A DNA stretch of 64,000 nt from Candidatus Omnitrophota bacterium (GCA_028280285.1 JANQMA010000026.1:64822-128821); one strand, 5' to 3'. Positions 13,347 through 55,426 are shown, counted from the first letter of the stretch. Notes: generated by a model not told the origin, from the sequence alone. Numbers and translations: made by a program.

Positions 13347-13433
13347 TGATGCTAGATCCTGGATGCTAGATGCTTGTGTGGCTAGTACAACTAGCATCAA
13401 GCATCTAGATACTAGCATCCAGAATATAGAAAG
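13347..13433. repeat. palindrome of the gatgctag-unit family, in the lysS leader
   Basis: The inverted repeat is tgatgctagatcctggatgctagatgcttgtgtggctagtacaactagcatcaagcatctagatactagcatccagaat. Confidence 0.75.
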
Positions 13434-15323: not shown

Positions 15324-15397
15324 TTGTTGTCTGTTGTTAGTTGTTTGTTGTTGGATTTTCAAACTAACAACCATCAACTAACACCCAACAACTGGAG
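15324..15397. repeat. imperfect palindrome, gttgtt-unit family (ttgttgtctgttgttagttgtttgttgttgg ... ctaacaaccatcaactaacacccaacaac)
   Basis: It lies between the hypothetical gene and lolE. The tracked lolE ORF start falls inside this element. Confidence 0.7.
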
Positions 15398-17295: not shown

Positions 17296-17478
17296 GAAAG
17301 AAAAAGTAAAAAAGAAAATTTAAAAGTTAAAATTTAAAATCGTATTTAGTAGTTAGTAATTGGTAATTAGAGATTGCAACCCCGAACCAATTACTAATTA
17401 CCAACGACTAAATACCAAACACAATTTAATTTTTTAATTTATTTCAATTTTTCATTTTCTTTTTTACTTTTAATTTTT
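17296..17478. repeat. long AT-rich inverted repeat (arms ~85 nt, phased A-tracts) with core gtatttagtagttagtaattggtaatt
   Basis: The left arm is gaaaaagtaaaaaagaaaatttaaaagttaaaatttaaaatcgtatttagtagttagtaattggtaattag. The loop is agattgcaaccccgaacc and the right arm is the reverse complement. It lies in the lolD/ilvE intergenic region. Confidence 0.75.
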
Positions 17479-18371: not shown

Positions 18372-18380
18372 ATGGATTTT

Positions 18381-18440
18381 GGCCTTGGGGGTTGGGACTT
18401 AGGACTTAGAATCCAAGTCCCAAGTCCTAACGCCTAAGTC
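18381..18440. repeat. imperfect palindrome (gggacttaggacttagaat ... caagtcctaacgcctaagtccc)
   Basis: It is an inverted repeat in the ilvE/mcsB intergenic region. Confidence 0.6.
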
Positions 18441-18455
18441 CCAGGTACTAAAATT

Positions 18456-25933: not shown

Positions 25934-25998
25934 GCGTCGTTAGTTGTTGGTCATTAGTCATTAGTCATTGGAGGACGAATGACTAAAGACCAGACGCA
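25934..25998. repeat. imperfect palindrome (gcgtcgttagttgttggtcattagtcattagtcatt ... aatgactaaagaccagacgc)
   Basis: It lies in the ispD/ispF intergenic region and contains a gttagttgttgg unit and a tandem tcattag unit. Confidence 0.6.
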
Positions 25999-26512: not shown

Positions 26513-26580
26513 GTCTGTTTATTGTTTAATGTTTAAAGTTTGGGTGATGTAATAAACAATAAACATTAAACTTTAAACGG
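26513..26580. repeat. palindrome of the gttta-unit family (tgtttattgtttaatgtttaaagttt ... aaacaataaacattaaactttaaacgg)
   Basis: It lies in the ispF/cysE intergenic region and belongs to the same family as 55371-55426. Confidence 0.7.
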
Positions 26581-26625
26581 ACTTGGAGTTATTTTATTAA
26601 TATATTTTTTAACAGGTAGGAAATC

Positions 26626-27333: not shown

Positions 27334-27948
27334 GGGTAAATTTATTACGTTTGAAGGCTCCGAAGGTTCAGGCAAGAGCACGCAGATGGCATTGCTTAAA
27401 AAATATCTTCAGAAAAGAAAGTGTAAGGTTATTGTTTTGCGTGAGCCCGGTGGCGTTAAGATCAGCGAGACGGTAAGGCGTATTCTTTTGGATACAAAAA
27501 ATAAGGAGATGAATAAAATCTGTGAGACGCTGCTTTACATGGCGGCGCGTGCTCAGCTCGTCGAAGAAAAACTGATTCCGGCCCTTAAAGAAGGTAAGGT
27601 TATTCTTTGTGACCGTTTTTTGGATTCAACCGTTGTTTATCAAGGATACGGCTGCGGGATTGATATTAAGACGGTGCAGTCTATCGGTAAGTTTGCCACG
27701 CAGGCATTGAGCCGGATATGACACTGTTTTTTGATATTGATGTTAAAAAAGGCATGAAGCGTATTCAAAACCGTAAACTGGACCGCATTGAGCAGCGCAC
27801 GCTTAATTATCACAATAAGGTACGCCGTGGTTATTTGGATATGGCACGTAAATATCCCAGGCGGATTAAGGCGATCAAGGTTGATCGATCGATTGATGAG
27901 ATTCATGAGGTTGTTAAAAAATACGTAAATAAAATATTAAAATTGTAG
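27317..27948 (+). pseudogene. tmk: thymidylate kinase interrupted by a -1 frameshift near nt 27708-27715
   Basis: The 27317..27721 ORF carries the P-loop FITFEGSEGSGKST and DRF-DST-YQG. The 27718..27948 ORF in another frame begins with the expected continuation PDMTLFFDIDV...R-DRIE. One base is missing around gagccggat. Confidence 0.7.
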
Positions 27949-28007
27949 GGGCGGCTCGTGAGCCGCCCTAATATGTCGATAAATTAGGGTCGCTCGCGAG
28001 CGACCCG
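27948..28007. repeat. nested GC-rich hairpins (gggcggctc gtg gagccgccc, ctaat...attag, gggtcgctc gc gagcgaccc)
   Basis: Two perfect 9-bp GC stems are joined by a third inverted repeat, in the tmk/holB intergenic region. No U tract follows. Confidence 0.7.
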
Positions 28008-28028
28008 TACAATATTAATATAATTCTT

Positions 28029-29796: not shown

Positions 29797-30092
29797 AAAG
29801 TAAAAAGTCAAAAATAAAATGAAAAAATGAAATAAATTTATAAAGTAAAATTAAAATTCGTATTTGGTAGTTAGTAATTGGTAATTGGTTTTCTAAAAAA
29901 TAATAATTTAAAAATGATATATTATTGTGCCAAGCAAAAAATATTAAAACTCTTGAAATCCATTTTCTATTATGAATCCGATTTATAAATTGTTCACCAA
30001 TTACCAAATACCAATTACTAAATACATTTTTTATTTTTTATTTTCTTTCAATTTTTTAATTTTCTCTTTTAATTTTTATTTCACATTTTTGA
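29797..30092. repeat. long AT-rich inverted repeat of the same family as 17296-17478, with a ~110-bp central insert
   Basis: The arm core cgtatttggtagttagtaattggtaattgg matches ccaattaccaaataccaattactaaatac on the other side. The arms carry phased A-tracts. It lies in the yaaT/metG intergenic region. Confidence 0.75.
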
Positions 30093-31606: not shown

Positions 31607-31697
31607 TTAGCGTTTAGCGTATAGCGTTTAGGGAGTGGTTAGTTATTAGTCACTAATCACTTTCTATTCGCTATCCGCTATGCGCTGTACGCTAAAA
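31607..31697. repeat. palindrome of the tagcg-unit family (tagcgtttagcgtatagcgtttaggga ... tcgctatccgctatgcgctgtacgctaaa)
   Basis: It lies in the metG/mtnA intergenic region. Confidence 0.75.
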
Positions 31698-33642: not shown

Positions 33643-34106
33643 TGATTACTGTTAAAACCGAAAACGAAAAAGAGACGAAAGCATTGGCTGCGAGGCTTGC
33701 CAAATTGCTTAAGCCCGGGGATATTGTCTTTCTTAACGGTGATCTGGGAACGGGGAAAACAACCTTTGTTAAGGGGGCGGCTAAGCATTTTAAAGTCGAT
33801 GAAACTAAAGTGGTGAGCCCGACTTATGTGCTGCTTAATATCTATGACGGGAAGTATGAGATCTATCACTTTGATCTTTATCGTCTAGATAACATGAATC
33901 AGATTAATACGATCGGTTATGAAGAGTTTTTTTATGGCGAGGGCATTTCTTTTGTCGAGTGGCCTGAAAGATTGGGTGATGCTGCGCCGAGTGAGTATTT
34001 GAAGGTGACGATCGCTCATCGTACGGAAGGTAAACGGACGATTAAGATAATGGCCCGTGGGACCCGTTATAAGAACCTATTAGAAAAAATCAAAGAATTA
34101 AAATAG
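33642..34106 (+). CDS. tsaE: tRNA threonylcarbamoyladenosine biosynthesis protein TsaE
   Basis: It has a P-loop (LNGDLGTGKTTF) and the YDGKYEIYHFDLYRL and YGEGISFVEWPE motifs. Confidence 0.85.
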   Translation: MITVKTENEKETKALAARLAKLLKPGDIVFLNGDLGTGKTTFVKGAAKHFKVDETKVVSPTYVLLNIYDGKYEIYHFDLYRLDNMNQINTIGYEEFFYGEGISFVEWPERLGDAAPSEYLKVTIAHRTEGKRTIKIMARGTRYKNLLEKIKELK

Positions 34107-34197
34107 CGCTTAGCGTATAGCGTTTAGCGAATAGGAAGTTTTCAGTGTTGACAACTGCAGGCTTTCTAAACGCTAACCGCTATACCCTATACGCTAA
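34107..34197. repeat. palindrome of the tagcg-unit family (gcttagcgtatagcgtttagcgaatagga ... ctaaacgctaaccgctataccctatacgctaaa)
   Basis: It lies in the tsaE/tsaB intergenic region. Confidence 0.75.
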
Positions 34198-34204
34198 ATT
34201 CATT

Positions 34205-34884: not shown

Positions 34885-34982
34885 AATTAAGCGTATAGGG
34901 TATAGCGTTTAGCGAATAGGTAGTAATTAGTGTTTTAGTCTGATAACTACCTAAACGCTATGCGCCGTACGCTAAACGCTAA
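34885..34982. repeat. palindrome of the tagcg-unit family (aagcgtatagggtatagcgtttagcgaataggtagt ... actacctaaacgctatgcgccgtacgctaaacgct)
   Basis: It lies in the tsaB/alr intergenic region. Confidence 0.75.
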
Positions 34983-34987
34983 ATATT

Positions 34988-36151: not shown

Positions 36152-36157
36152 AATTGG

Positions 36158-36240
36158 TGATCTGTGATCTGTGTTCTGTGATCTGGAAAATAATATCATA
36201 GATTTATTCGGACCACAGACCACTGAACACGGACCACAAT
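36158..36240. repeat. imperfect palindrome (gtgatctgtgatctgtgttctgtgatctgg ... ccacagaccactgaacacggaccacaat)
   Basis: It lies in the alr/chrA intergenic region. Pairing is better with G-U wobble, so it may be an RNA-level structure. Confidence 0.6.
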
Positions 36241-36252
36241 AGGAGCTTTTTA

Positions 36253-37326
36253 ATGAGCAAGTTACTCGAACTCTCAGTCATTTTTCTTAAACTTGGGACA
36301 GTTGCCTTCGGTGGTCCGGTGGCGCATATCGCGATGATGGAAGAGGAGTTTGTCGAAAAACGCAAGTGGCTCACCCGTGATCATTTCCTGGATCTGATTG
36401 GCGCAACCAATTTGATCCCGGGGCCAAACTCGACGGAGATGGCCATGCATTTGGGCTTTGTGCGTGCACGGTTTGCCGGGCTTGTTGTCGCCGGCGTTTC
36501 TTTTATCCTGCCGGCGGTGTGTTTAACAGGGGCGCTTGCGTATCTTTATATTCACTACGGCTATTTGCCGAAGTTTGAAGCGGTCTTTTTAGGGATTCGT
36601 GCGGCGATCCTTGCGCTTATTTTAAGCGCGATCCTCAAACTTGGCAAAAAGGCGGTTAAGAATCGCACACTCGGTGTGATCGGTATTATCGCGCTTGCGC
36701 TTGTATTATACGGAGTGAATGAAGTCGCGGCACTCTTTATTGCCGGGCTACTGGGGACGGTGTGGACCTATTCGAGCGATACGTTTTTTAAACGCGGCTC
36801 GCCTAAGGTGGCACTTGTGCCGCTCTTTTTAGTGTTCCTTAAAATCGGCGCGATTCTTTTTGGCAGCGGGTATGTCTTGATTGCGTATCTACAAGGGGAG
36901 TTGGTCGAGGGCTTGCATTGGTTGAATGAGGCAGCTCTTCTTGATGCTGTGGCGATCGGTCAGATGACACCGGGGCCGGTGCTCTCCACCTCAACGTTTA
37001 TCGGGTATTATTTAAGCGGAGTGGAAGGGGCGATTGTGGCAACGGTAGGGATGTTTCTGCCGGCCTTTTTCTTTGTGGCTGTCACATCACCCTTTATCAG
37101 CAAAATCCGCCGTGTCCCAATCCTTGGGTGTTTTCTTGATTCGGTTAATGTTGCCGCTGTTGGCCTCATGAGCGCGGTCTTGATCCATCTTGTTCAAACC
37201 TCCATCGTCGACGCCAAATCTGCCACCATCTGCGTCCTGGCGGTTGTGTATGTGTATTTTGTGAAGAAAGTTAATGTGTTTTTGTTGGTAGGGGTGAGTG
37301 CTGTGGCAGGGTTTGTATTGTTTTAA
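36253..37326 (+). CDS. chrA: chromate transporter ChrA family (two fused CHR domains)
   Basis: 357 aa, polytopic, with the ChrA motifs (GGPVAHIAMM and LPGPNST) repeated in both halves. Its 3' end is duplicated downstream of a palindromic insertion. Confidence 0.8.
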   Translation: MSKLLELSVIFLKLGTVAFGGPVAHIAMMEEEFVEKRKWLTRDHFLDLIGATNLIPGPNSTEMAMHLGFVRARFAGLVVAGVSFILPAVCLTGALAYLYIHYGYLPKFEAVFLGIRAAILALILSAILKLGKKAVKNRTLGVIGIIALALVLYGVNEVAALFIAGLLGTVWTYSSDTFFKRGSPKVALVPLFLVFLKIGAILFGSGYVLIAYLQGELVEGLHWLNEAALLDAVAIGQMTPGPVLSTSTFIGYYLSGVEGAIVATVGMFLPAFFFVAVTSPFISKIRRVPILGCFLDSVNVAAVGLMSAVLIHLVQTSIVDAKSATICVLAVVYVYFVKKVNVFLLVGVSAVAGFVLF

Positions 37327-37410
37327 ATTTAGCGTCTAGCGGATAGCGGTTAGCGTTTAGGAAGTAATCAGTAACTAGTCGCTATACGCTGTACGCTAAA
37401 CGCTAGTAAG
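37327..37410. mobile_element. tagcg-family palindrome inserted at the chrA 3' end, flanked by a ~57-bp duplication of the gene end (MITE-like)
   Basis: The element (tagcgtctagcggatagcggttagcgtttagga ... gctatacgctgtacgctaaacgcta) separates two copies of gt(t/g)aatgtgtttttgttggtaggggtgagtgct...ttttaa, at 37270-37326 and 37411-37467. Confidence 0.6.
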
Positions 37411-37523
37411 GTGAATGTGTTTTTGTTGGTAGGGGTGAGTGCTTTAGCGGGATTTTTATTATTTTAATTTGGAGAAAAGTATGTTTAGAAGAATCCCGGG
37501 GACACGTACGTAATTAATGAAAG

Positions 37524-37572
37524 GCCTATTCAACTGACGCAGTTGAATGGGTAACGCAGTTGAATGGGTAGG
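37524..37572. repeat. hairpin of the cctattcaactg family, with the right arm tandemly duplicated
   Basis: The sequence is cctattcaactgacgcagttgaatgggtaacgcagttgaatgggtagg. Confidence 0.65.
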
Positions 37573-37586
37573 CATCTAAGAGTAGA

Positions 37587-37620
37587 ATAAAAAAGGGCCA
37601 GGATTGCTCCTGGCCCGACT
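37587..37620 (-). terminator. terminator-like hairpin oriented for the minus strand (A tract on + strand = U tract on - strand)
   Basis: On the plus strand it reads ataaaaaa gggccagg attgctc ctggccc. No annotated minus-strand gene lies upstream of it. Confidence 0.35.
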
Positions 37621-37708
37621 CGTAACTCAAACTTTCTTTTCGCAAGTTACTTTAAATATAAAGGATAATGCAGGATTTTTCAATAACAATCACTAACCGA
37701 GGTTAATC

Positions 37709-38764
37709 ATGAAACATAAATTAACAGCAAAGTATTTTTCGCAGGAGGATTTGCTTAAGTCCGGTTGCCTGGATTTAAAGATGGCGATTAAGGCGGCGGA
37801 AGAGGCCCTGCTTGAGCACAGTGACGGGGAGGTGCTTTTTCCGGATAAAATTGTTCAGATATTTAATCATGACACGCAGGAAAGAATCAATTGTCTGCCG
37901 GCCACATTCTTTAAAGAGAAAATTTGCGGCATGAAATGGGTGTCTGTCTTTCCGCCTAATCCGGCGCGCCATGGCCTGCAAAACCTTTCGGCGGTTATGA
38001 TTTTATCGGAAATTGAAAAAGGGTTTCCGCTGTGTTTTATGGAGGGGACATTATGTTCTAATGTCCGTGTCGGCGCGATGGGGGCGCTGGCGGCCAAACA
38101 TTTGGCCAAAAAGGATCCTAAATCGATCGGCTTTATCGGCAGCGGCGAGCAGGCTAAGATGCATTTGATTGCCATGAAAACAATTTTTTCAACGATTGAG
38201 GAGTGCCGGGTCGCGGCTAAGGAAGATGTGGAAGAAGAGGCATTCATCTATGAAATGAAGGCGATTTTTCCTGATATCACATTTCAAGCCGCGCAAACAG
38301 AATTAGAGCGATCGGTCGATGGGGCGGACATTGTTGTCACCGCCACCAGTGTGCAGGCGCCGCTCCTTAAAGCCGATTGGGTTAAGCCGGGCGCCTTTTA
38401 CAGCCATATCGGCGGATGGGAAGATGAGTATGCCGTTGCCAAACAATCCGATAAAATTGTCTGTGACGACTGGGAAACCGTTAAGCACCGCACACAAACA
38501 TTGAGCCGTATGTATAAGGACGGTGAGCTCAAAGATGATGATATCTATTGTAATTTGATCGATATTGTGCGCGGTGAGAAAAAAGGGCGCGAGTCGGAGG
38601 ATGAGAGGGTTTATTTTAATGCGGTAGGGCTCGCGTATGTGGATGTGGCGATCGCAATCGCAATGTACAACCGTGCTTTAGAGTCCGGGGTTGGACAAGA
38701 TCTAACCATTCAGGACTGCATGATTTTTCAACACGAAGAAATCAAAGACTGGATTCGTTTGTGA
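37709..38764 (+). CDS. ornithine cyclodeaminase / mu-crystallin family protein
   Basis: 351 aa with a Rossmann motif (IGFIGSGEQA) and the OCD/mu-crystallin architecture. Confidence 0.75.
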   Translation: MKHKLTAKYFSQEDLLKSGCLDLKMAIKAAEEALLEHSDGEVLFPDKIVQIFNHDTQERINCLPATFFKEKICGMKWVSVFPPNPARHGLQNLSAVMILSEIEKGFPLCFMEGTLCSNVRVGAMGALAAKHLAKKDPKSIGFIGSGEQAKMHLIAMKTIFSTIEECRVAAKEDVEEEAFIYEMKAIFPDITFQAAQTELERSVDGADIVVTATSVQAPLLKADWVKPGAFYSHIGGWEDEYAVAKQSDKIVCDDWETVKHRTQTLSRMYKDGELKDDDIYCNLIDIVRGEKKGRESEDERVYFNAVGLAYVDVAIAIAMYNRALESGVGQDLTIQDCMIFQHEEIKDWIRL

Positions 38765-38771
38765 ACACAAA

Positions 38772-38798
38772 GCCTATTCAACTGCGGCAGTTGAATAG
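38772..38798. repeat. perfect hairpin of the cctattcaactg family, immediately after the OCD stop
   Basis: The hairpin is cctattcaactg cg gcagttgaatagg. Confidence 0.7.
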
Positions 38799-38824
38799 GT
38801 AGTATTTATATTGAGGAGAAAATT

Positions 38825-39352
38825 ATGCCATCAACAAAGTTGGTCGCAGGGGCGGCGTTTCCTGAGATAAAAGTAAAAAGTTTAGAAGGTGAGGACATGG
38901 AGTTCGGCAAACCAAGGGGCGATGCGGATTGGCGGATGGCCATTGTGTATCGCGGACGGCATTGTCCTTTATGCACAAAGTTCCTTAATAAGCTTGACGG
39001 GTATATCAAGCGGCTTTTGGATGTGGGCATTGCGTTGGATATTGTCTCCGGTGATAGCAAAGAGCAGCTTGAGGAGCATTTGACGCGTCTTGAGGTGAGC
39101 TTCCCTATATACTATGGATTAACCGTTGAGCAAATGAAAATATTGGGTCTTTATATTTCTCATCCACGATCGGAAAAGGAAACAGATCATCCCTTTGCCG
39201 AACCGGGTATGTTTATTCTCAATGAGAAGGGCACATTGCAAGCCGTTGATATTTCTAACAATCCTTGGGCCCGTCCTGATCTGGAGGTTATGGTCTCAGG
39301 GCTGGAATGGATCCGTAGTAATAATTACCCTATTCGTGGGACGTATGAGTAA
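38825..39352 (+). CDS. thioredoxin-fold protein (peroxiredoxin/redoxin-like, CPLC motif)
   Basis: 175 aa carrying RGRHCPLCTKF in a thioredoxin-like context. Confidence 0.45.
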   Translation: MPSTKLVAGAAFPEIKVKSLEGEDMEFGKPRGDADWRMAIVYRGRHCPLCTKFLNKLDGYIKRLLDVGIALDIVSGDSKEQLEEHLTRLEVSFPIYYGLTVEQMKILGLYISHPRSEKETDHPFAEPGMFILNEKGTLQAVDISNNPWARPDLEVMVSGLEWIRSNNYPIRGTYE

Positions 39353-39385
39353 AAATTTCGGGGACATAATACATAATTATTAACT
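39353..39385 (+). repeat. 30-nt 3'-flank repeat aaaatttcgRggacataatacataaNtatt (copy 1)
   Basis: It immediately follows the thioredoxin-fold gene stop. The second copy is at 40751-40785, after the lipoprotein stop. Confidence 0.6.
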
Positions 39386-39557
39386 AAGCCTGCTCCGTTC
39401 AATACTGCGTTCTACAAAATTTAAATGTTTGCATGTTTAAATTTTGCAGTACTCGTGTTGAACTCCGCAGGTAAATTCGTTGTAACAACTTACGTTGCTC
39501 CCGCTGCATTATTACGAATGCTGGCAGCGGGATCTGCCGTAAGGTGAACACTCATTT
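39386..39557 (+). repeat. ~100-nt repeat (copy 1) plus a variable hairpin, ending in cattt immediately before the gmhB ATG
   Basis: aagcctgctccgttcaatactgcgttctacaaaatttaaatgtttgcatgtttaaattttgcagtactcgtgttgaactccgcaggtaaattcgttgtaa is near-identical to 42795-42894. It is followed by the hairpin cccgctgc...gcagcggg. Confidence 0.7.
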
Positions 39558-40103
39558 ATGAAGCGAGCAATTTTTCTAGACAGAGACGGAACAATCAACG
39601 AGGATGTGGGGTATTTTTGCACACGGGATAAGTGGGAATATATTCCAGGATCGATTGAAGCACTTAAAATTCTTCAGAAAGATTATGTTCTTTTTATCGT
39701 GACCAATCAATCGGGTGTGGCCCGGGGATTTTTTACAGAAGAAGAGCTTATTAAGTTTAATGGTGAAGTTGAACAGATGCTACGCAAAGAAGGCATCATT
39801 ATTCAAAAAACATATTATTGCCCGCATATGGGGGACGAAGAGCATTGCAATTGCCATAAACCGTCGCGCTTTTTTTTAGACCAAGCCAAGAAAGAGTTTA
39901 ATATCGATCTTGAAAACTCTTTTGTCATTGGCGATCATCCGCATGATGTGGAGTTTGGCCAGCAAGTCGGCGCGACGTCGATCTATGTGTTAACAGGGCA
40001 TGGTGAGAAACACAAAGACGAGCTCACCGACATTGATCCACCGGACTTCATCGCCAAAAATTTGTACGAAGCAACAATGTGGATAAATAATCAAAGGAGT
40101 TAA
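39558..40103 (+). CDS. gmhB: D-glycero-D-manno-heptose 1,7-bisphosphate phosphatase-like HAD-IIIA hydrolase
   Basis: It has the HAD motif I (FLDRDGTIN), a Zn-binding insert (CPHMGDEEHCNCHKP) and GDHPHD. Confidence 0.7.
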   Translation: MKRAIFLDRDGTINEDVGYFCTRDKWEYIPGSIEALKILQKDYVLFIVTNQSGVARGFFTEEELIKFNGEVEQMLRKEGIIIQKTYYCPHMGDEEHCNCHKPSRFFLDQAKKEFNIDLENSFVIGDHPHDVEFGQQVGATSIYVLTGHGEKHKDELTDIDPPDFIAKNLYEATMWINNQRS

Positions 40104-40105
40104 TT

Positions 40106-40750
40106 ATGTTATCGTTTTCTAAAACAAATAGTTTTTTTGCAAGCACATTATTTATCTTGCTAATTCTTTTAACCGCTTGTGGCACGCAGGCATCCAGCGA
40201 TGTCAATTTATCGGCATCCGCTCTTCAAAAAGGAGTGGGGCTTGTTAAGTGGGGCGCTGATCCAGAAAAGTTGGATAAACTACAAGCGATTCAAAAAGAT
40301 GTTGTATTGAACTTCGGCGGTGTTAATCCGTTTGATGCCTTTGAGCAACAATCCGACATTAAGGTATATCAACATCCTGATGCGCCGATTCAATTAGGTA
40401 AACAAGTTATTGAAGAAGTAAAGTATTACGCACGGGACGGTAAAGGGATTGTGGCCGCACGCATTATTTTGGCGGATAAACCTCACAAGGCGGATCCGTT
40501 TCTTTTAAAGGGGCTGGATAAGGAGACGATCGCAAATTTAGTTTTAAGGGGGTATCCTTTTTATGAACTGATTAATAAATCTGCGACACTGCTTAATGAA
40601 AATTTTAACTCACCGACAGGTTATCCTTGGTTTCTATGGGGTGTTGGCGGCACTAAAGAGAAGCCGAACGTAACCATCATGGCTGGTAATTGGCGCGGTT
40701 CGGAAAGTTTGGATAATAAATATGTGCTTCATATTTACAAGGTAGAATAA
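40106..40750 (+). CDS. hypothetical lipoprotein
   Basis: It has a signal peptide with a lipobox (LLTAC) and no other recognisable motif. Confidence 0.45.
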   Translation: MLSFSKTNSFFASTLFILLILLTACGTQASSDVNLSASALQKGVGLVKWGADPEKLDKLQAIQKDVVLNFGGVNPFDAFEQQSDIKVYQHPDAPIQLGKQVIEEVKYYARDGKGIVAARIILADKPHKADPFLLKGLDKETIANLVLRGYPFYELINKSATLLNENFNSPTGYPWFLWGVGGTKEKPNVTIMAGNWRGSESLDNKYVLHIYKVE

Positions 40751-40785
40751 AATTTCGAGGACATAATACATAACTATTTTGAAAT
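40751..40785 (+). repeat. 30-nt 3'-flank repeat aaaatttcgRggacataatacataaNtatt (copy 2)
   Basis: It immediately follows the lipoprotein stop and lies upstream of the SDR gene. Confidence 0.6.
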
Positions 40786-40811
40786 AGAAAATTTAATTGG
40801 AGGAGAGAACA

Positions 40812-41624
40812 ATGGCACAAACAATTTTTATTACAGGTTCATCAACCGGGATTGGCCGCGCAACAGCGAAACTGTTTCACCAAAATGGCTGGAATGTGGT
40901 GGCCACCATGCGCAGCCCTGAAAAAGAAGAAGAACTTAAGGCGCTGGATAATGTGCTGGTCACACAATTAGATGTGTTGGATCAAGCTTCCATTGACGCT
41001 GCGGTTAAAGTAGCCGTTGATCAATTCGGCCAAATTGATGTATTGCTTAACAATGCCGGTTACGGCATCATGGGTCCGATGGAAACACTGGATGATGCGC
41101 TCATCCGTCGGCAATTTGACGTGAATTATTTTGGCGTCATCGATTGCATGAAGGCTGTTTTGCCGCATATGCGTCAAAGAAAAAAGGGAATGATCATTAA
41201 TGTTTCTTCGATCGGCGGACTTGTGGCGTACCCTTATTTGACGATTTATAATTCAACCAAGTTTGCGCTTGAGTGTTTGACCGAAGGGGCGCAATACGAA
41301 TTAAATCCACTTGGGATTAAACTGAAATTGATTGAACCGGGTGCGATTAAAACGCAGTTTGGCGGTTCGATGCAGCTTAGTGAGACAGGCGCCATTGAAG
41401 ATTACAAACCAGGTTTTGGGACCATGGTCAGTAAACTGGAAGGCATGCTGGATAATGCCTCATCGCCTGAACTTGTTGCCGATGTGATTTGGCAGGCGGC
41501 CACCGATGGCACCGATCAGGTGCGTTATCTGGCCGGTCAAGATGCGGTAGATAACTGGGCTACGCGCAGACAAATGGAAGATGCGGCATTTAAAAATATG
41601 TTTGTCGAGCAGTTGGGGCTTTGA
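40812..41624 (+). CDS. short-chain dehydrogenase/reductase (SDR)
   Basis: It has TGSSTGIGRA, NNAG and the S...YNSTK catalytic tetrad. The start was moved to the ATG behind a GGAGGA RBS. Confidence 0.8.
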   Translation: MAQTIFITGSSTGIGRATAKLFHQNGWNVVATMRSPEKEEELKALDNVLVTQLDVLDQASIDAAVKVAVDQFGQIDVLLNNAGYGIMGPMETLDDALIRRQFDVNYFGVIDCMKAVLPHMRQRKKGMIINVSSIGGLVAYPYLTIYNSTKFALECLTEGAQYELNPLGIKLKLIEPGAIKTQFGGSMQLSETGAIEDYKPGFGTMVSKLEGMLDNASSPELVADVIWQAATDGTDQVRYLAGQDAVDNWATRRQMEDAAFKNMFVEQLGL

Positions 41625-41630
41625 TACATA

Positions 41631-42224
41631 GTGTCAGATCCAAGAAAAATAGTGAAAGCAACACCAAATGATTGTGAAGCATTGGCGAAAGCGATGAGCC
41701 GTGCATTTATCAATGAGCCGTATTGCCGGTGGCTTTTTCCGTCGGATAAAGACTGGATTAATCGATCTGAACAATTTTTTACGTATGATCTTAAACATGG
41801 TCTGCGTTATGGGAATCTTTCTAAAACCGAAGATAATGGTGCGGCGATGCAATGGGCGTTTGTAGGTCAAAACGAAGAGAAAAATAACTGGAGCGATTTT
41901 GAATATTTGTGGCATACCTTTTTGCAGTTTGGTCTAAGGACGCGTGATATATATCGCGTCTTTGATTTGTTTAAAAAACATATGCCTGACGCACCGTTTG
42001 TTTACATAGAATTTCTCGGCGTTGATCCTGACAAACAGGGTCGGGGCTATGGTAAGGCGATGATCGAGTACGCGATCGCAGAATCAACAAAAAACAATTG
42101 TCCGGTTTATCTGGAAACATGCGACGAAAAAACGGTTCGGTTTTATGAAAAGCTTGGTTTTTCTGTCAGTAATCAATTTGATTTTGCGCCGGGGGCAAAA
42201 GCCTTTTGTATGATTCGCAGATAA
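41631..42224 (+). CDS. GNAT family N-acetyltransferase
   Basis: GTG start. It has an acetyl-CoA-binding motif (QGRGYGKAMIEYA) and a GNAT fold. Confidence 0.65.
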   Translation: MSDPRKIVKATPNDCEALAKAMSRAFINEPYCRWLFPSDKDWINRSEQFFTYDLKHGLRYGNLSKTEDNGAAMQWAFVGQNEEKNNWSDFEYLWHTFLQFGLRTRDIYRVFDLFKKHMPDAPFVYIEFLGVDPDKQGRGYGKAMIEYAIAESTKNNCPVYLETCDEKTVRFYEKLGFSVSNQFDFAPGAKAFCMIRR

Positions 42225-42314
42225 CGTTGTGCGTTCATTTAATTTTTCTTGGAAAAAAGTCCGCGCATGATATACTCCTAGTAAAGAAGATTTTGTCCAT
42301 TAAAGGGAACAGTT

Positions 42315-42515
42315 ATGATTAAAATACGTGATATAGAAAAAGCGGTGTCAAGTCTACCCAAAAAAGATTTTATGAAATTTCGTGCATGGTTTCATAAATT
42401 CGATGCGCTTAAATGGGATGAGCAGTTGAAAAAAGACGTCCACAGCGGTAAGCTGGACAAGCTTGCTGAAAGTGCGCTCAAAGATTTCAAAGATGGTAAA
42501 TGCAAAGAATTATGA
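42315..42515 (+). CDS. putative addiction-module antitoxin (small partner of RelE/ParE toxin)
   Basis: 66 aa with a WDEQL...GKLDKLAESALKDFKDGK-type C-terminus. It overlaps the downstream toxin gene by 16 nt. Confidence 0.55.
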   Translation: MIKIRDIEKAVSSLPKKDFMKFRAWFHKFDALKWDEQLKKDVHSGKLDKLAESALKDFKDGKCKEL

Positions 42516-42766
42516 AGCATTTAACCAGTCCTTCTTTTTGGAAATGTTACGAACGCCTGCCTTCATCTATTCGGAAAATAGCTGACAAAAATTTTACTTT
42601 ACTTAAGAAGAACGCAAAACACCCTTCACTTTATTTTAAGAAGATCGGCAAGTATCGTTCAGTTAGAATTGGCACCCGTCATCGAGCACTTGCGGTTGAG
42701 AATGATAAGGATTTACTCTGGTTCTGGATTGGCTCGCATGCGGATTACGATAAGCTCGTTAAATAA
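42500..42766 (+). CDS. RelE/ParE family toxin
   Basis: 88 aa. The KYRSVRIGTRHRALAVENDKDLLWFWIGSHADYDKL motif matches the RelE/ParE fold signature (R...R..Y-less ParE type). Confidence 0.7.
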   Translation: MQRIMKHLTSPSFWKCYERLPSSIRKIADKNFTLLKKNAKHPSLYFKKIGKYRSVRIGTRHRALAVENDKDLLWFWIGSHADYDKLVK

Positions 42767-42794
42767 TAGAGGGCGGCACCCCGTTTAATTAAAA

Positions 42795-42939
42795 AGCCTG
42801 CTCCGTTCAATACTGCGTTCTACAAAATTTAAATGTTTGCACGTTTAAATTTTGTAGTACTCGTGTTGAACTCCGCAGGTAAATTCATTGTAAGACTTAT
42901 GTTCAGCGCTGTGCGCTTCCATAAGTCTAACATTCATTT
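42795..42939 (+). repeat. ~100-nt repeat (copy 2) plus a variable hairpin, ending in cattt immediately before the methyltransferase ATG
   Basis: The ~100-nt core matches 39386-39485 with about 3 mismatches. It is followed by the hairpin agacttatg...cataagtct. Confidence 0.7.
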
Positions 42940-43572
42940 ATGAAATCTACTTCAGAAAAATTTTGGAATAAGACGGCCCGCAAGTACGCCAAGGATCCGA
43001 TTAAGGATATGGCGGGCTATGAAAAGACACTCGCAGATACGAAAAAATATCTAGGCGCGGATAAGTGTGTACTTGAATTCGGCTGCGGGACCGGGATGAC
43101 GGCCCTTAAACTTGCGACGTACACAAAGGAATATACAGCGACGGACATCTCCACGGAGATGATTACCATTGCCAACGAAAGAAAGGCTGCCGAAAAGGCA
43201 GATAATCTGCATTTTGTTAAAGGCACATTAGATGATGCCTCGCTTAAAAAAGGCGCCTATGATGTAATTTTAGGGTATAATATTATTCACTTACTTGATG
43301 ATACAAACGCAGCGCTCAAACGCATCCATGCGCTGCTTAAGCCGGGGGGAGTTTTTATTTCCAAAACACCCTGCCTGCGCGAGAAAAGTTGGTTCTGGCC
43401 GATCGCCGCGCCAATTGTCGCCGCCGTCCTCGGCGTTGGTACGATCAAAAGTTTTACAGTCGCTCAATTAGAAGAAATTATAATATCCCAAGGTTTTCAT
43501 ATCATCGACCGTCACCTCTACTCATCCACAATGTCTAGACCTTTTTGGGTTGCGAAGAAATCCTCTATTTGA
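42940..43572 (+). CDS. class I SAM-dependent methyltransferase
   Basis: It has motif I (VLEFGCGTGMTA) and the post-I acidic residue (TATDIS). Confidence 0.75.
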   Translation: MKSTSEKFWNKTARKYAKDPIKDMAGYEKTLADTKKYLGADKCVLEFGCGTGMTALKLATYTKEYTATDISTEMITIANERKAAEKADNLHFVKGTLDDASLKKGAYDVILGYNIIHLLDDTNAALKRIHALLKPGGVFISKTPCLREKSWFWPIAAPIVAAVLGVGTIKSFTVAQLEEIIISQGFHIIDRHLYSSTMSRPFWVAKKSSI

Positions 43573-43573
43573 G

Positions 43574-43600
43574 CCTATTCAACTGCCGCACTTGAATTGG
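43574..43600. repeat. hairpin of the cctattcaactg family, immediately after the methyltransferase stop
   Basis: The hairpin is cctattcaactgccgcacttgaattgg, with 2 mismatches. Confidence 0.65.
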
Positions 43601-43626
43601 CATCTTTATTCTGCTAGGATAGGTCC

Positions 43627-44919
43627 ATGCAATTTTACACGGATCTGCATTTGCATTCCCATTATTCCCGCGCGACGAGTAAGAACTTAAATCTGGAACA
43701 TCTTAATCTCTGGGGACAGCTCAAAGGCATTAACATTGTCGGCACCGGAGATTTTACTCATCCGGCCTGGTTTAAAGAGCTTCAGGAAAAGCTCGAGCCT
43801 GCCGAAGAGGGATTATTCAAACTTAAAAAAGAGTATCAAGAAATCGCCAAAAAAGAACTCCCCGCAGCGTGCAAGGGTGAGCTACGCTTTATGCTCACCG
43901 TTGAGATTTCTAATATTTATAAACGGCTTGATCGTGTGCGCAAGGTCCATAATGTGGTCTTTGCGCCGAGCTTTGAGGCGGCTGGAAAAATTAGAGACAG
44001 GTTGGATAAGATCGGCAATCTCAATGCCGATGGACGGCCGATTCTGGGACTCGACTCCCGCGATCTTTTGGAAATCGTACTTGAATCCGATCCGCTGAGC
44101 TATCTTGTGCCGGCGCATATCTGGACGCCGTGGTTCTCGGCCATGGGATCCAAAAGCGGATTTGATCGGATGACTGATTGCTTTGGGGATTTAAGCGATC
44201 ATATCTTTGCGGTTGAGACAGGGCTCTCATCCGATCCGACCATGAATTGGCGCTTAAGCCAACTGGATCCGTATGTGTTGGTCTCCAATGGGGACGCGCA
44301 TTCACCGCAAAAGCTTGCACGCGAGGCAACGATTTTTGACACCGAGATGTCCTATCCGGCGATTTATGATGCGCTGCGTAATCCGCAAACTAATAAAGGA
44401 CTCATTGGCACGGTCGAATTTTTTCCGGAAGAAGGCAAGTATCACTATGACGGCTGTCGTAATTGTCAGATGCGTATGCATCCAAAGGAAACGGTCGAGC
44501 ATAGCGGTGTTTGCCCGTCATGTGGTAAGCCGGTGACTGTCGGTGTTATGGCGCGTGTGGAAGAACTCGCCGATCATCCGGAAGGGCGCAAGGCGCCGAA
44601 CTGGCGGCCGTTTTTTAGTTTGATTCCATTGCCGGAGATTATCGGGGATTGTGTCGGCGTTGGTCCGAACAGTAAGACCGTGCAAAATCAATTCAGGACA
44701 TTATTATCGACGCTCGGTAATGAAATGTTTATTCTGCGTGATTGCCCACTTGATCACATTCAAAAAGCCGGTGGAGCACGTTTGGCGCAAGCGATTGAAC
44801 GGATGCGAAAAGGAGACGTTAACATTGCCGCTGGTTATGACGGGGAATACGGAAAGATTAAAATATTTTCTGCTGACGATGTTGTGCCTGAAGAAACAGA
44901 TCAGTTGACTTTATTTTGA
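43627..44919 (+). CDS. PHP-family metal-dependent phosphoesterase with C-terminal Zn ribbon (COG1379-like)
   Basis: It has N-terminal H-x-H (DLHLHSHYSRATS), further PHP His/Asp motifs (NGDAHSPQ) and a C4 Zn ribbon (CRNCQ...CPSCGKP). Confidence 0.7.
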   Translation: MQFYTDLHLHSHYSRATSKNLNLEHLNLWGQLKGINIVGTGDFTHPAWFKELQEKLEPAEEGLFKLKKEYQEIAKKELPAACKGELRFMLTVEISNIYKRLDRVRKVHNVVFAPSFEAAGKIRDRLDKIGNLNADGRPILGLDSRDLLEIVLESDPLSYLVPAHIWTPWFSAMGSKSGFDRMTDCFGDLSDHIFAVETGLSSDPTMNWRLSQLDPYVLVSNGDAHSPQKLAREATIFDTEMSYPAIYDALRNPQTNKGLIGTVEFFPEEGKYHYDGCRNCQMRMHPKETVEHSGVCPSCGKPVTVGVMARVEELADHPEGRKAPNWRPFFSLIPLPEIIGDCVGVGPNSKTVQNQFRTLLSTLGNEMFILRDCPLDHIQKAGGARLAQAIERMRKGDVNIAAGYDGEYGKIKIFSADDVVPEETDQLTLF

Positions 44920-44925
44920 AAATAA

Positions 44926-44960
44926 AAAAGGCCAGGAATAATAATTCCCGGCCTTTTTCT
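44926..44960 (+). terminator. rho-independent terminator after the PHP gene
   Basis: A ggccaggaa..ttcccggcc hairpin followed by TTTTT, 7 nt after the stop codon. Confidence 0.6.
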
Positions 44961-45009
44961 ATAGCTTAATGGCTCCCTGACTAAGATCTAATTTAAATAT
45001 ATAATAAGA

Positions 45010-46533
45010 ATGAACTCTGAGCAACAAAAATCTGTTCTTCACCGCGGCAGTCACTTACTCATCGTCGCCGGGCCCGGGACGGGCAAGACACACACCTTAA
45101 CTCACCGGATTGCCGCATTAGTTAAAGAGATTGCTGACAATAAACAAATCATTGCCATCACTTTCACTAATAAAGCGGCCGATGAAATGCGTACGCGCCT
45201 TGCTAAACTCATCAACGAAGATTTAAGTGAATGCATTGTCTGCGGAACCTTTCATCAGTTTTGCCTGCGGTTATTAAAAGAATATCAAGTGCACACATCA
45301 TTGCCCGACAATTTTCGTGTGGCATCCCCCGAAGAAATCCAAACATGCATTAAACAATCCTGGCCCGAGTTAACGAATAAAGAGAGAAAGGACCGGTTAA
45401 ACGCAATTTCCAATTGGAAATCATCGGTATTCACAGCAGAAGAACCTGAGACCGTCACCGAGTACAATCAATTATTAGCCAAAGAAGGTTTTCTTGATTT
45501 TGATGATGTGCTTTTACAGGCCTATTATCTTTTGCGGAATAATAAAGATGTTTTAGACAAAGTCCAATCCCAATATCCTACCATTTTTGTCGACGAGTAT
45601 CAGGATATTAATGGCATACAACATGCTTTGCTGAAAACTTTAGTTGGACCTAATAGTCATATAACAGCGATAGGGGATCCTAATCAAGCGATCTATGGCT
45701 TTCGCGGATCTGATGTGCGTTTTTTTCATAGTTTCGCCGAAGACTTTGCCGGGGCAACAGTTTTTTATTTATCTGATAATTACCGCTCATCACAAAATTT
45801 ATTGACTGCTTCAGGTCAAATGATTGCGCAAACCGCAAGTGCGCATGTTCCGGCCTTAACCGCACAACTTTATCAAGAAGGGCGTTTAACGATTTATCAG
45901 GCGCCAACAGATAAGGCCGAAGCCGAGTATGTTGTTCATCAAACCGAGAAGATGGTTGGCGGCACATCGATGTTTTCGCATGATTCAGGCCGCGTGCATA
46001 ATTTCGCTGAGTGCGAAATGAGTTTTGGGGATGTGGCCGTGCTTTACCGGCTTAACAGCCAGCGCCATGCGCTTATCAAAGCCTTTGACCGGATGGGTAT
46101 TCCCTATCAGGTATGCGCGAAGGCGAATATCGAAGAGGACGGCCTATCCGATGATGTCTGCCCGGAAAGGACAGAAGATGTTGATCTTGATCATGAGCGT
46201 GTGAGCCTCATGACTTTACATGCGTCCAAAGGACTTGAGTTTCCGGTTGTGTTTATTGTGGGCTGTGAAGAAAATTTGCTGCCGCTTGATATAGCCGGAC
46301 TGACATCGAGCAAAGAAGAAGAAAGGCGTTTGCTTTATGTCGGTATGACACGCGCTAAATCCCTGCTGTATCTTTGCCACAGCCAGAAGCGCATGCTCTT
46401 TGGTCAATCTCACCAGTCGAAACCATCAGAATTTCTGCAGGACATCGAGGAAGAACTTAAAAGTTACGATGTCGCTAAGCAAAAACCCAAACGCCCCGCC
46501 AAAAAAGAAGATTTCCAGATGACATTGTTTTAA
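45010..46533 (+). CDS. minimal UvrD/PcrA-like SF1 helicase (507 aa, reduced 2B domain)
   Basis: The SF1 helicase motifs are present: I (AGPGTGKT), Ia (TFTNKAADEM), II (DEYQD), III (GDPNQAIYGFRG), IV (YRSS), V (LHASKGLEFPVVFIV) and VI (YVGMTRAK). It is about 200 aa shorter than canonical UvrD. Confidence 0.85.
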   Translation: MNSEQQKSVLHRGSHLLIVAGPGTGKTHTLTHRIAALVKEIADNKQIIAITFTNKAADEMRTRLAKLINEDLSECIVCGTFHQFCLRLLKEYQVHTSLPDNFRVASPEEIQTCIKQSWPELTNKERKDRLNAISNWKSSVFTAEEPETVTEYNQLLAKEGFLDFDDVLLQAYYLLRNNKDVLDKVQSQYPTIFVDEYQDINGIQHALLKTLVGPNSHITAIGDPNQAIYGFRGSDVRFFHSFAEDFAGATVFYLSDNYRSSQNLLTASGQMIAQTASAHVPALTAQLYQEGRLTIYQAPTDKAEAEYVVHQTEKMVGGTSMFSHDSGRVHNFAECEMSFGDVAVLYRLNSQRHALIKAFDRMGIPYQVCAKANIEEDGLSDDVCPERTEDVDLDHERVSLMTLHASKGLEFPVVFIVGCEENLLPLDIAGLTSSKEEERRLLYVGMTRAKSLLYLCHSQKRMLFGQSHQSKPSEFLQDIEEELKSYDVAKQKPKRPAKKEDFQMTLF

Positions 46534-46760
46534 TGGAATGCCCACTTCGGCTGGGTATATTTCATTTTAGCAAGCAGCCTCGTGGGATAACTTCGCTGTA
46601 ACAGTTTACGTTCGTCGCGGTAATAATAATTTACAAAATCTGCTTTCGTAAATCACATTTTTTGCTTCGCAAAATAATGTGATTGTCTCCAGCAGTAAAT
46701 TCGCAGACGTTTCACTATAGTTTAGCTTCGCTGGCGCTTGCTAAACTATCTGCTCATTTA
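46534..46760 (+). repeat. degenerate relative of the 39386/42795 element (gtaaattcgcagacg...hairpin...ctgctcattt)
   Basis: It shares the gtaaattc...gtaacagtttacgtt...cattt layout and contains the hairpin tagtttagc...gctaaacta. It lies between the helicase and lptG. Confidence 0.45.
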
Positions 46761-49786: not shown

Positions 49787-49853
49787 GATGCTCGTTGCTA
49801 GATGCTGGTTGCTAGGCTCCACGAGCGACTAGCATCGAGGATCTAGCATCCAA
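49787..49853. repeat. palindrome of the gatgctag-unit family (gatgctcgttgctagatgctggttgctagg ... cgagcgactagcatcgaggatctagcatcc)
   Basis: It lies in the divergent region between comF on the minus strand and the small secreted ORF. Confidence 0.65.
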
Positions 49854-49874
49854 AATCTAAGAATTGGTCATAAT

Positions 49875-50186: not shown

Positions 50187-50187
50187 T

Positions 50188-50244
50188 AATTAAGGGGACA
50201 CAATACTTAATTAAAAAATAATTAAGTATTGTGTCCCCTTAATT
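50188..50244 (+). terminator. perfect 25-bp-stem hairpin after the small secreted ORF
   Basis: The hairpin is aattaaggggacacaatacttaatt aaaaaat aattaagtattgtgtccccttaatt, with no clear U tract. Confidence 0.45.
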
Positions 50245-50267
50245 ACGAAAAATAGAAAGAAGGACGC

Positions 50268-50822: not shown

Positions 50823-50837
50823 CGAATAAACAAACAG

Positions 50838-50898
50838 TTGCTCGTTGCTAGATGCTAGTCGCTCGTGGATGCTAGCAACCAGCAACAAGCAACCAGCA
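50838..50898. repeat. palindrome of the gatgctag-unit family (gttgctcgttgctagatgctagtcgc ... gatgctagcaaccagcaacaagcaaccagcaac)
   Basis: It lies in the pyrE/maf intergenic region. Confidence 0.65.
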
Positions 50899-50903
50899 AC
50901 TAA

Positions 50904-53221: not shown

Positions 53222-53292
53222 TAAAAAAGCCGTAGGCCATAAGCTGTAAGCCATATGATATGGCTTACAGCTTATGGCCTACTGCTTTTTTG
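53222..53292. terminator. bidirectional rho-independent terminator between convergent genes
   Basis: An ~29-bp-stem palindrome (agccgtaggccataagctgtaagccatat g atatggcttacagcttatggcctactgct) is flanked by an A tract and a T tract. Confidence 0.65.
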
Positions 53293-55370: not shown

Positions 55371-55426
55371 ATTGTTTAATGTTTAGAGTTTAATGTTTTA
55401 AACAATAAACATTAAATTTTAAACAA
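55371..55426. repeat. palindrome of the gttta-unit family (attgtttaatgtttagagtttaatgtttt aaacaataaacattaaattttaaac)
   Basis: It lies between the E2 and E3 cistrons, inside the pyruvate dehydrogenase operon. Confidence 0.7.

Follow-up and report, generated by a model that had tools for sequence, protein, structure and literature searches.

Duplication of the chrA 3' end around a TAGCG-heptamer hairpin at the border of a variable gene island in a Candidatus Omnitrophota bacterium

Background

Slippage and template switching at hairpins and quasipalindromes are established replication-error mechanisms that give rise to duplications, and transposases leave target-site duplications of roughly 2-15 bp. 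Several families of small repeats have been described from bacterial genomes: miniature inverted-repeat transposable elements (MITEs) have target-site duplications of 2-10 bp (PMC3184786, PMC3733652), repetitive extragenic palindromic (REP) elements are GC-rich stem-loops of 20-40 bp in which one end is marked by a GTAG or CGTC tag (PMC3733652), and TAACTGA heptamers occur as intergenic direct repeats in Beggiatoaceae and cyanobacteria, with a single inverted case reported (PMC4679880). At the scale of gene islands, integration by homologous recombination on one side and an illegitimate join on the other is an established process (PMC3240628). The subject of this study is a locus in a 64,000-nucleotide stretch of DNA from a Candidatus Omnitrophota bacterium (GCA_028280285.1 JANQMA010000026.1:64822-128821; hereafter the window), in which the 3' end of the chromate transporter gene chrA is present twice, on either side of a hairpin built of TAGCG heptamers, at the left edge of a gene island that is absent from the corresponding place in related loci. 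An original prediction made on this DNA took the arrangement for a direct footprint of MITE-like or hairpin-mediated insertion. Its observation is confirmed and its interpretation is partly supported; we read the structure, tentatively and at somewhat less than an even chance, as a recombination scar at the border of a replaceable island, with no transposition footprint.

The locus resembles the described systems in different ways. Gene-fragment scars at island borders, left by homology-facilitated illegitimate recombination (PMC3240628) or by imprecise island exchange, likewise place a short remnant of the flanking gene, in register and without function, at the head of a non-syntenic block, keep the intact gene, and need no mobility enzyme. 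In contrast to those scars, no donor arrangement was recovered for the present case, the two copies share a perfect core of 30 nucleotides (nt), and a hairpin stands exactly at the joint. The att repeats of integrative elements that target gene 3' ends are also comparable, being tens of nt long, including the gene 3' end with its stop codon, and leaving the gene intact through the upstream copy. An att duplication made by an integrase was rejected, as the repeats enclose only the 78-nt hairpin and not the island, no third copy exists in the window, and the proteins of the island show no integrase domain.

With bacterial MITEs and palindromic repeats such as Correia, RPE, ERIC and REP/REPIN (PMC3184786, PMC3733652), the TAGCG hairpin shares its small size, its multiple intergenic copies near gene ends, and the existence of lineage-specific families that turn over. 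An assignment to REP or REPIN was rejected, because the TAGCG element is about 80-100 nt long, ends in TTTAGCG...CGCTAAA and has neither a GTAG nor a CGTC tag. Measured against MITEs, the family has multiple full-length homologous copies with terminal inverted repeats but shows no short target-site duplication at the three copies other than that of chrA, and arms made of tandem TAGCGNN heptamers set it apart from both MITEs and REP elements. The TAACTGA repeats (PMC4679880) are similar in being tandem 7-nt units with stop codons, intergenic and near gene starts and stops; unlike them, the units described here stand in two inverted arrays that together form a long, periodically mismatched hairpin, and they include many different heptamers.

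Results and Discussion

The chrA 3' end is present twice

The chrA gene (36253-37326, plus strand) is an intact open reading frame (ORF) of 357 amino acids (aa) that matches the chromate transporter family (Pfam PF02417 Chromate_transp, E 1.2e-81), with aa identities of 79% and 62% to the ChrA proteins of two related loci, L082 and L089. Its last 19 codons, the stop codon and 3 further nt (copy 1, 37267-37329, plus strand) are repeated downstream on the same strand (copy 2, 37408-37470), forming an ungapped direct repeat of 63 nt with 54 of 63 positions identical (86%) and a start-to-start spacing of 141 nt. Copy 1 is the live gene end, through which DNA similarity to the L082 chrA extends as far as 37327, and copy 2 lies to the right of the point where that similarity ends. 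The perfect core is found at 37273-37302 in copy 1 and 37414-37443 in copy 2 (plus strand; 100% over 30 nt; BLAST within the window, E 4.5e-12). When the chrA 3' end is aligned locally with the spacer that follows it, the score is 81; 500 shuffled controls average 16.9 and reach no more than 27. The duplication claimed in the original prediction is real and does bracket the hairpin; its length was underestimated at about 57 nt, and the core that had been given as 33 nt at about 85% identity is in fact the 30-nt run without a mismatch. This pair is the sole outstanding direct repeat of at least 20 nt at a distance of at most 400 nt within the window, and BLAST finds no third copy there.

The two copies share the chrA reading frame, since 141 = 3 x 47, and same-frame translation gives KVNVFLLVGVSAVAGFVLF for copy 1 and KVNVFLLVGVSALAGFLLF for copy 2, both of them valid ChrA C-termini, as had been proposed. 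Read-through from chrA is made impossible by an in-frame TAG at 37330; with more stops inside the hairpin, this rules out an alternative ChrA C-terminus. Copy 2 was also rejected as the beginning of a downstream gene, no ORF of at least 20 aa covering it, and a GTG-initiated mini-ORF of 18 codons within it is possible. Judged by its sequence, copy 2 is an untranslated relic of the chrA 3' end behind several stop codons, without demonstrated function. A separately assembled Logan contig (L001, SRR20820735) is 100% identical across 37200-37720, from reads that are possibly the very ones behind the metagenome-assembled genome, and this identity makes a simple assembly artefact unlikely.

Differences between the two copies

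The nine differences between the copies are unevenly distributed: two lie within the opening 6 nt and seven within the closing 27, and the 30 nt in the middle have none. Given nine differences in 63 nt, an identical run of 30 nt has a permutation P of 0.016. Among the eight differences in codons, six are at position 3, two at position 1 (Val/Leu) and none at position 2, a skew with P = 0.02 under random placement. There are no indels and the TAA stop is kept in both copies. Both variable residues are Leu in copy 2, matching L089 and most ChrA homologues. Over the last 24 coding nt, the pairs copy 1/copy 2, copy 1/L082 and copy 2/L082 each have seven differences. Taken together, the differences look like the divergence of two functional coding sequences. 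A separate observation is that three of them turn GTGGCAG of copy 1 (37302-37311) into TTAGCGG in copy 2 (37443-37452), the heptamer core of the hairpin family itself; this may be chance or a templated change, and could be an incipient seed.

A diversity-generating retroelement was also considered and rejected. Only three of the nine differences fall on A, whichever copy is taken as template, and no reverse-transcriptase domain is present in the eight island proteins or the two lpt permeases; ChrA, a membrane transporter and not a ligand-binding target, would moreover fit such a system poorly.

The TAGCG hairpin and its family

Between the copies lies an imperfect palindrome with arms at 37328-37353 and 37375-37400 (26 nt, 81% complementary, extendable to 37405). 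The element as a whole (37328-37405, no strand assigned) is 78 nt long and begins 1 nt past the chrA stop; its period-7 arrays cover 37328-37360 and 37380-37405, and its predicted RNA fold has -36.8 kcal/mol (z = -4.3). It belongs to a family of four copies, in agreement with the palindrome family recognised earlier, whose arms are four to five tandem heptamers of TAGCGNN and its complement. The four copies align over their full length with a mean column identity of 75% and are all inside 6 kb (31.6-37.4 kb). The others occupy the junctions of metG with a gene of the IF-2B family (31607-31696), of tsaE with tsaB (34103-34199, where the TAG stop of tsaE is the first unit) and of tsaB with alr (34886-34984), none with an assigned strand. 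Every copy fills a stop-to-start gap between genes on the same strand and starts at a point from 3 nt ahead of a stop codon to 12 nt beyond it. The TAGCGNN motif occurs 21 times in the window, against 0.05 expected, and is confined to these four places.

The copies of the family fold strongly (z from -6.6 to -8.1). No compensatory pair was found in the four aligned copies, which thus provide no evidence that an RNA fold is under selection. At its right end, the chrA hairpin reads GTAA in place of the AAAT of the other three copies, which places the joint with copy 2 at or just inside the hairpin element.

An intrinsic (Rho-independent) terminator, which has a GC-rich stem, a loop of 3-8 nt and a T-run after it, was rejected as an explanation of the hairpins: a terminator scan calls none of the TAGCG hairpins. 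The chrA hairpin has 14 apical nt unpaired in the predicted fold (21 nt between the arms according to the repeat finder) and no T-run directly after it, and the other three copies adjoin the next start codon. Searches of the window with Rfam at gathering thresholds and for tRNA and tmRNA gave no match. In public metagenome contigs, a scan for four TAGCGNN units recovered at least 120 contigs of 31-73% GC, so the TAGCGNN-array hairpins are not restricted to this Omnitrophota lineage; among the metagenome loci L094-L213, clear inverted TAGCGNN arrays are seen in L097, L121, L127, L138 and L175.

The repeat stands at a break of synteny

MetRS homologues assign the lineage to Candidatus Omnitrophota, and three related loci were available for comparison. 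L082 (MetRS identity 84%, ChrA 79%), the closest relative found, has the gene order metG ... tsaE-tsaB-alr-chrA of the window, followed after a single chrA end by a GTAG-tagged double hairpin and different genes, from a TPR gene through purD to lptG. In L089 (MetRS 80%, ChrA 62%), alr is followed by DUF2237, chrA and MatE, and L092 (MetRS 76%) lacks chrA, its alr converging straight on lptG. At the DNA level, the window resembles L082 up to the chrA stop (37327) and again from the lptG stop (46757) onward, which delimits a variable island of 9.4 kb (37328-46756, no strand assigned). This non-syntenic block opens with the hairpin and copy 2, which form its left edge, with their joint at the hairpin end. 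On the lptG side of the island, no scar was found. Since the alr-lptG interval differs in every relative examined (L082, L089 and L092), the junction must have been broken repeatedly, and the DNA after chrA is a hot spot of gene turnover with copy 2 as its first item.

Both L082 and L089 carry a single chrA end without a TAGCG hairpin, and neither has a gene-end duplication after chrA. The comparison with related genomes that had been proposed thus yields sites without the insert, although neither locus is a close strain; in particular, as each has only one chrA end, neither shows both copies without the palindrome, the arrangement that would have made the duplication older than the element. 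For an empty site in a closer strain, a collection of 5.8 billion proteins was searched, and besides the window's own it contains no ChrA of more than 79% identity.

Flanks of other hairpins

If hairpin insertion regularly left such a duplication, other hairpins should show it. For each of 25 window hairpins, the preceding 100 nt were aligned with the following 100 nt (null mean 15). The chrA hairpin scores 81 and the other 24 at most 22. The same holds for TAGCG-array hairpins in general: among the matches listed, 49 have complete flanks, and besides the chrA hairpin with 81 the remaining 48, of which about 45 are from metagenomes, score at most 21. Short target-site duplications were also sought at the other three TAGCG copies of the window, whose AT-rich flanks give no confident case. 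The long flanking duplication therefore looks like a one-off and not like a general trace of hairpin insertion. It is also, as the original prediction had itself remarked, unusually long for a target-site duplication, its 63 nt being several-fold longer than the roughly 2-15 bp left by transposases. The position of copy 2 on the island side of the synteny break and the clustered, coding-like differences oppose a target-site duplication as well; simple decay of a fresh one does not predict such differences, and the claim that the duplication is a footprint of insertion is left unsupported.

Origin of the duplication

The explanation that we prefer, while giving it rather less than an even chance, is that recombination left a scar where a replaceable gene island has its left border. 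Most core-gene stop-to-start junctions of the lineage hold a heptamer-periodic hairpin, that of chrA lying directly after its stop codon. The present island would have arrived as DNA from a relative in which it likewise adjoined chrA, so that its left end kept the last ~60 nt of the donor chrA. The lptG side would have been integrated through homology. The left end would have been attached by an illegitimate join to the resident hairpin, either right at its outer end or no more than 2-4 nt from it; such an event would be homology-facilitated illegitimate recombination or another one-sided process of that kind. The resulting order would be the resident chrA end (copy 1), the resident hairpin, the imported chrA fragment (copy 2) and the imported island. 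We infer both the joining mechanism and the descent of copy 2 from a second allele; the scenario starts from the repeat as observed, with its position at a synteny break, its uniqueness and its substitution pattern, and accounts for position, uniqueness, coding-like divergence, the consensus residues of copy 2 and the damaged hairpin end.

Several results weigh against an island-border scar. A perfect 30-nt core is not expected between alleles that are 29% different in the adjacent tail (P = 0.016), and explaining it takes the further assumption of a mosaic donor or of gene conversion at a later time. Anything directly after chrA falls at the break, which makes the synteny evidence weak if taken alone, and the truncated hairpin end amounts to 2-4 nt in a comparison of only four copies. 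The codon-position skew has a P of roughly 0.1, by a hand estimate, if copy 1 is taken as constrained and copy 2 as neutral. Polarisation with L082 shows no asymmetry, five sites favouring copy 2 and four favouring copy 1. The base composition of the island does not differ from that of its surroundings. Lastly, a donor-like order, with chrA followed directly by the same spacer and the island gene OCD, was not found in the five distinct neighbourhoods of OCD homologues examined, whose identities are 79-89%.

Close behind the scar in likelihood, at a probability that we would put well short of even, is a duplication of 141 nt in situ, caused by a template switch at the hairpin during replication. 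The nascent strand would copy the chrA end and the hairpin, stall or dissociate at the hairpin and re-prime ~141 nt upstream; equivalently, the hairpin would be copied from a neighbouring copy and the strand would return out of register. Copy 2 would decay afterwards, and gene conversion would keep the centre of the repeat identical. This is the nearest mechanistic form of the hairpin-mediated insertion originally suggested. Like known slippage and template-switch products at hairpins, the duplication has its endpoint at the hairpin base, and it brackets the hairpin exactly. The identical 30-nt centre with diverged edges fits conversion tracts that rarely reach the ends of a short repeat, and the three tail changes of copy 2 that are polarised as derived, all from G to A or T, fit AT-biased decay. 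A perfect 17-nt tandem duplication in another hairpin 70 nt downstream (37537-37570) indicates that slippage at hairpins does happen here; the clustering of four TAGCG copies in 6 kb fits short-range copying, and hairpin and duplication are both missing from L082 and L089. Simple slippage, however, yields the order A-P-A-P (A for the gene end, P for the palindrome) and not A-P-A. A fresh, perfect 63-nt repeat spaced 141 nt apart around a hairpin should vanish fast by slippage, such repeats being normally unstable, yet the copies are old, with 14% divergence. Coding-like substitutions without an indel and with the stop kept are not predicted for a neutral copy, and the change from Val to Leu (GTG to TTA) takes two hits to arrive at the family consensus residue. 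Nor is a like footprint seen at the 24 other window hairpins or at about 45 metagenome hairpins among those listed. As a more general form of this process, the chrA site might be the footprint of a transposase-free spread, in which a hairpin close by is copied into the junction at a stop codon through a switch of the replication template, the return is out of register and tens of nt of the target are duplicated; we consider this improbable.

A pair of unrelated steps is slightly more doubtful still. The last ~63 nt of chrA would have been duplicated in tandem, a neutral change since the gene keeps its first stop codon, and a TAGCG hairpin would later have colonised that first stop; in a variant, the chrA end and hairpin would have been duplicated together and the second hairpin excised between AAATTT ends. 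All four TAGCG copies start 3 nt before to 12 nt after a stop, and this regularity means that a hairpin after the first stop needs no tie to the duplication; the sequence after copy 2 (TAATTTGGAG) also resembles an unfilled site, with TAA, ATTT and flank. Two independent events at one spot are required, however, the problems of persistence and of coding-like divergence are those of the in-situ model, and L082 and L089 show no hairpin-less tandem duplication of a gene end. A literal target-site duplication, in which a MITE-like element would have inserted between staggered cuts about 60 nt apart, is very unlikely. The copies do flank the element exactly and the element does belong to a multi-copy family, but 63 nt stand against the known 2-15 bp or so, no flank duplication accompanies the other three copies or about 45 metagenomic TAGCG hairpins among those listed, the adjacent island proteins contain no transposase or integrase domain, and the right end of the element is not intact. 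We find it hardly credible, and give it the lowest probability of all, that assembly strung the chrA ends of two strain variants one after the other through the repeated hairpin. The source is a metagenome-assembled genome, and the copies differ in a way that resembles strain-level synonymous variation. Against this, the separately built Logan contig is identical over all three junctions, and the junction of the hairpin right end with copy 2 (CGCTAGTAAGGTGAATG), which would exist in neither hypothetical strain, must be present in reads.

Heptamer hairpins across the window

Hairpins with period-7 arms are found in 17 of 25 spacers of at least 45 nt outside the island and in none of the seven spacers within it (Fisher P = 0.002). 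Apart from the TAGCG copies, those in core-gene gaps are at 1716-1788, 13348-13425, 15326-15392, 17324-17440, 18377-18452, 25947-25993, 26513-26582, 29855-30025, 36157-36240, 49787-49857, 50836-50900, 53223-53291 and 55372-55426. Their units include GTTGTTG, GATGCTA, TGTTTAA, GTGATCT, GTAATTA, GGACTTA, GTCATTA, AGTTGCT and others, with three to five in tandem per arm, and some families are found twice, 14-36 kb apart. L082 has hairpins at the same core junctions, of other heptamer families, whereas L089 and L092 have none there. The junctions that hold TAGCG copies in the window have spacers of 1-16 nt or overlaps in these two loci; across its core junctions, L089 has spacers of 1-21 nt apart from a single one of 412 nt, which is also without a heptamer hairpin. 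The lack of hairpins in L089 and L092 and the different families in L082 argue that the hairpins have been gained and turned over. Together with the full-length homology of the four TAGCG copies and the negative terminator scan, this upholds the earlier view that the palindromes are gained or copied elements and not ordinary terminators. We found no description of heptamer-armed hairpins in Omnitrophota in the literature.

The left arms of eight of the 17 heptamer hairpins, including all four TAGCG copies, carry stop codons in all three plus-strand frames, where base composition predicts 6.7%. Because each repeat of a 7-nt unit moves the frame by one, three repeats of a unit that contains a stop are enough to close all of these frames.

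Gene content and other repeats of the island

The island encodes OCD, an AhpC-like protein, HAD, SDR and GNAT proteins, a methyltransferase, a 430-aa protein without assignment and a GajB-like helicase. No integrase, transposase or reverse-transcriptase domain was found in the ten proteins at 37.7-48.9 kb, which are the eight island proteins plus LptG and LptF. The helicase, of UvrD type and 507 aa, matches models of GajB of the Gabija system with E 6e-88, and the 430-aa protein ahead of it has no match in Pfam or PADLOC; the two (43627-46533) may be a defence pair with an unrecognised partner.

All five distinct neighbourhoods of OCD homologues that were examined differ, with no similarity upstream of the gene; this pattern suggests that OCD is a mobile cassette consisting of one gene. 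OCD is bordered by a short hairpin, CCTATTCAACTG-N3-CAGTTGAATRGGTA, that is the same on both sides (37525-37570 and 38768-38800). In the upstream one, ACGCAGTTGAATGGGTA is present twice; this is the perfect 17-nt tandem duplication mentioned above, and it covers the loop and the right arm. On the minus strand of 37588-37683, a promoter-like TTGAAA-17-TATATT (37683-37655) precedes a strong terminator-like hairpin carrying a T6 run (37616-37595). There is no minus-strand gene in this interval and Rfam gives no match; it could be a small RNA of ~60 nt or a remnant.

Other repeats were noted in the region. A GC-rich double hairpin, GTAGGGGCG...CGCCCTA, ATGTCGATAAATTA, GGGTCGC...GCGACCC, is found at 27934-28021 of the window and at 7078-7150 of L082, there directly 3' of the chrA stop, and looks like a GTAG-tagged REP doublet (PMC3733652). 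A palindrome of ~50 nt, GCGTTCTACAAAATTTAAATGT..., occurs twice in the island (39417-39466 and 42814-42863). A GGGGACA...TAATTA family has half-copies in the island at 37494-37518 and 39357-39385 and a perfect palindrome at 50187-50245, and a GTAACANNTTACGTT motif near 39480 and near 46590 is common to L082 (near 12640).

Conclusion

The duplicated chrA end is a small, pseudogene-like relic that leaves the role of chrA unchanged, and one long flanking repeat of this kind should not be read as a signature of transposition. Its use is rather that of a dated marker, recording that the junction of chrA and lptG was cut and rejoined beside a hairpin repeat. The hairpins themselves are the more interesting biology, as they fill most core-gene stop-to-start gaps of this lineage and are absent from L089, L092 and the island. 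Should the transposase-free spread considered above be true, the TAGCGNN arrays, many of which form hairpins, in at least 120 metagenome contigs of 31-73% GC would represent a widespread and unrecognised form of repeat propagation by copy choice.

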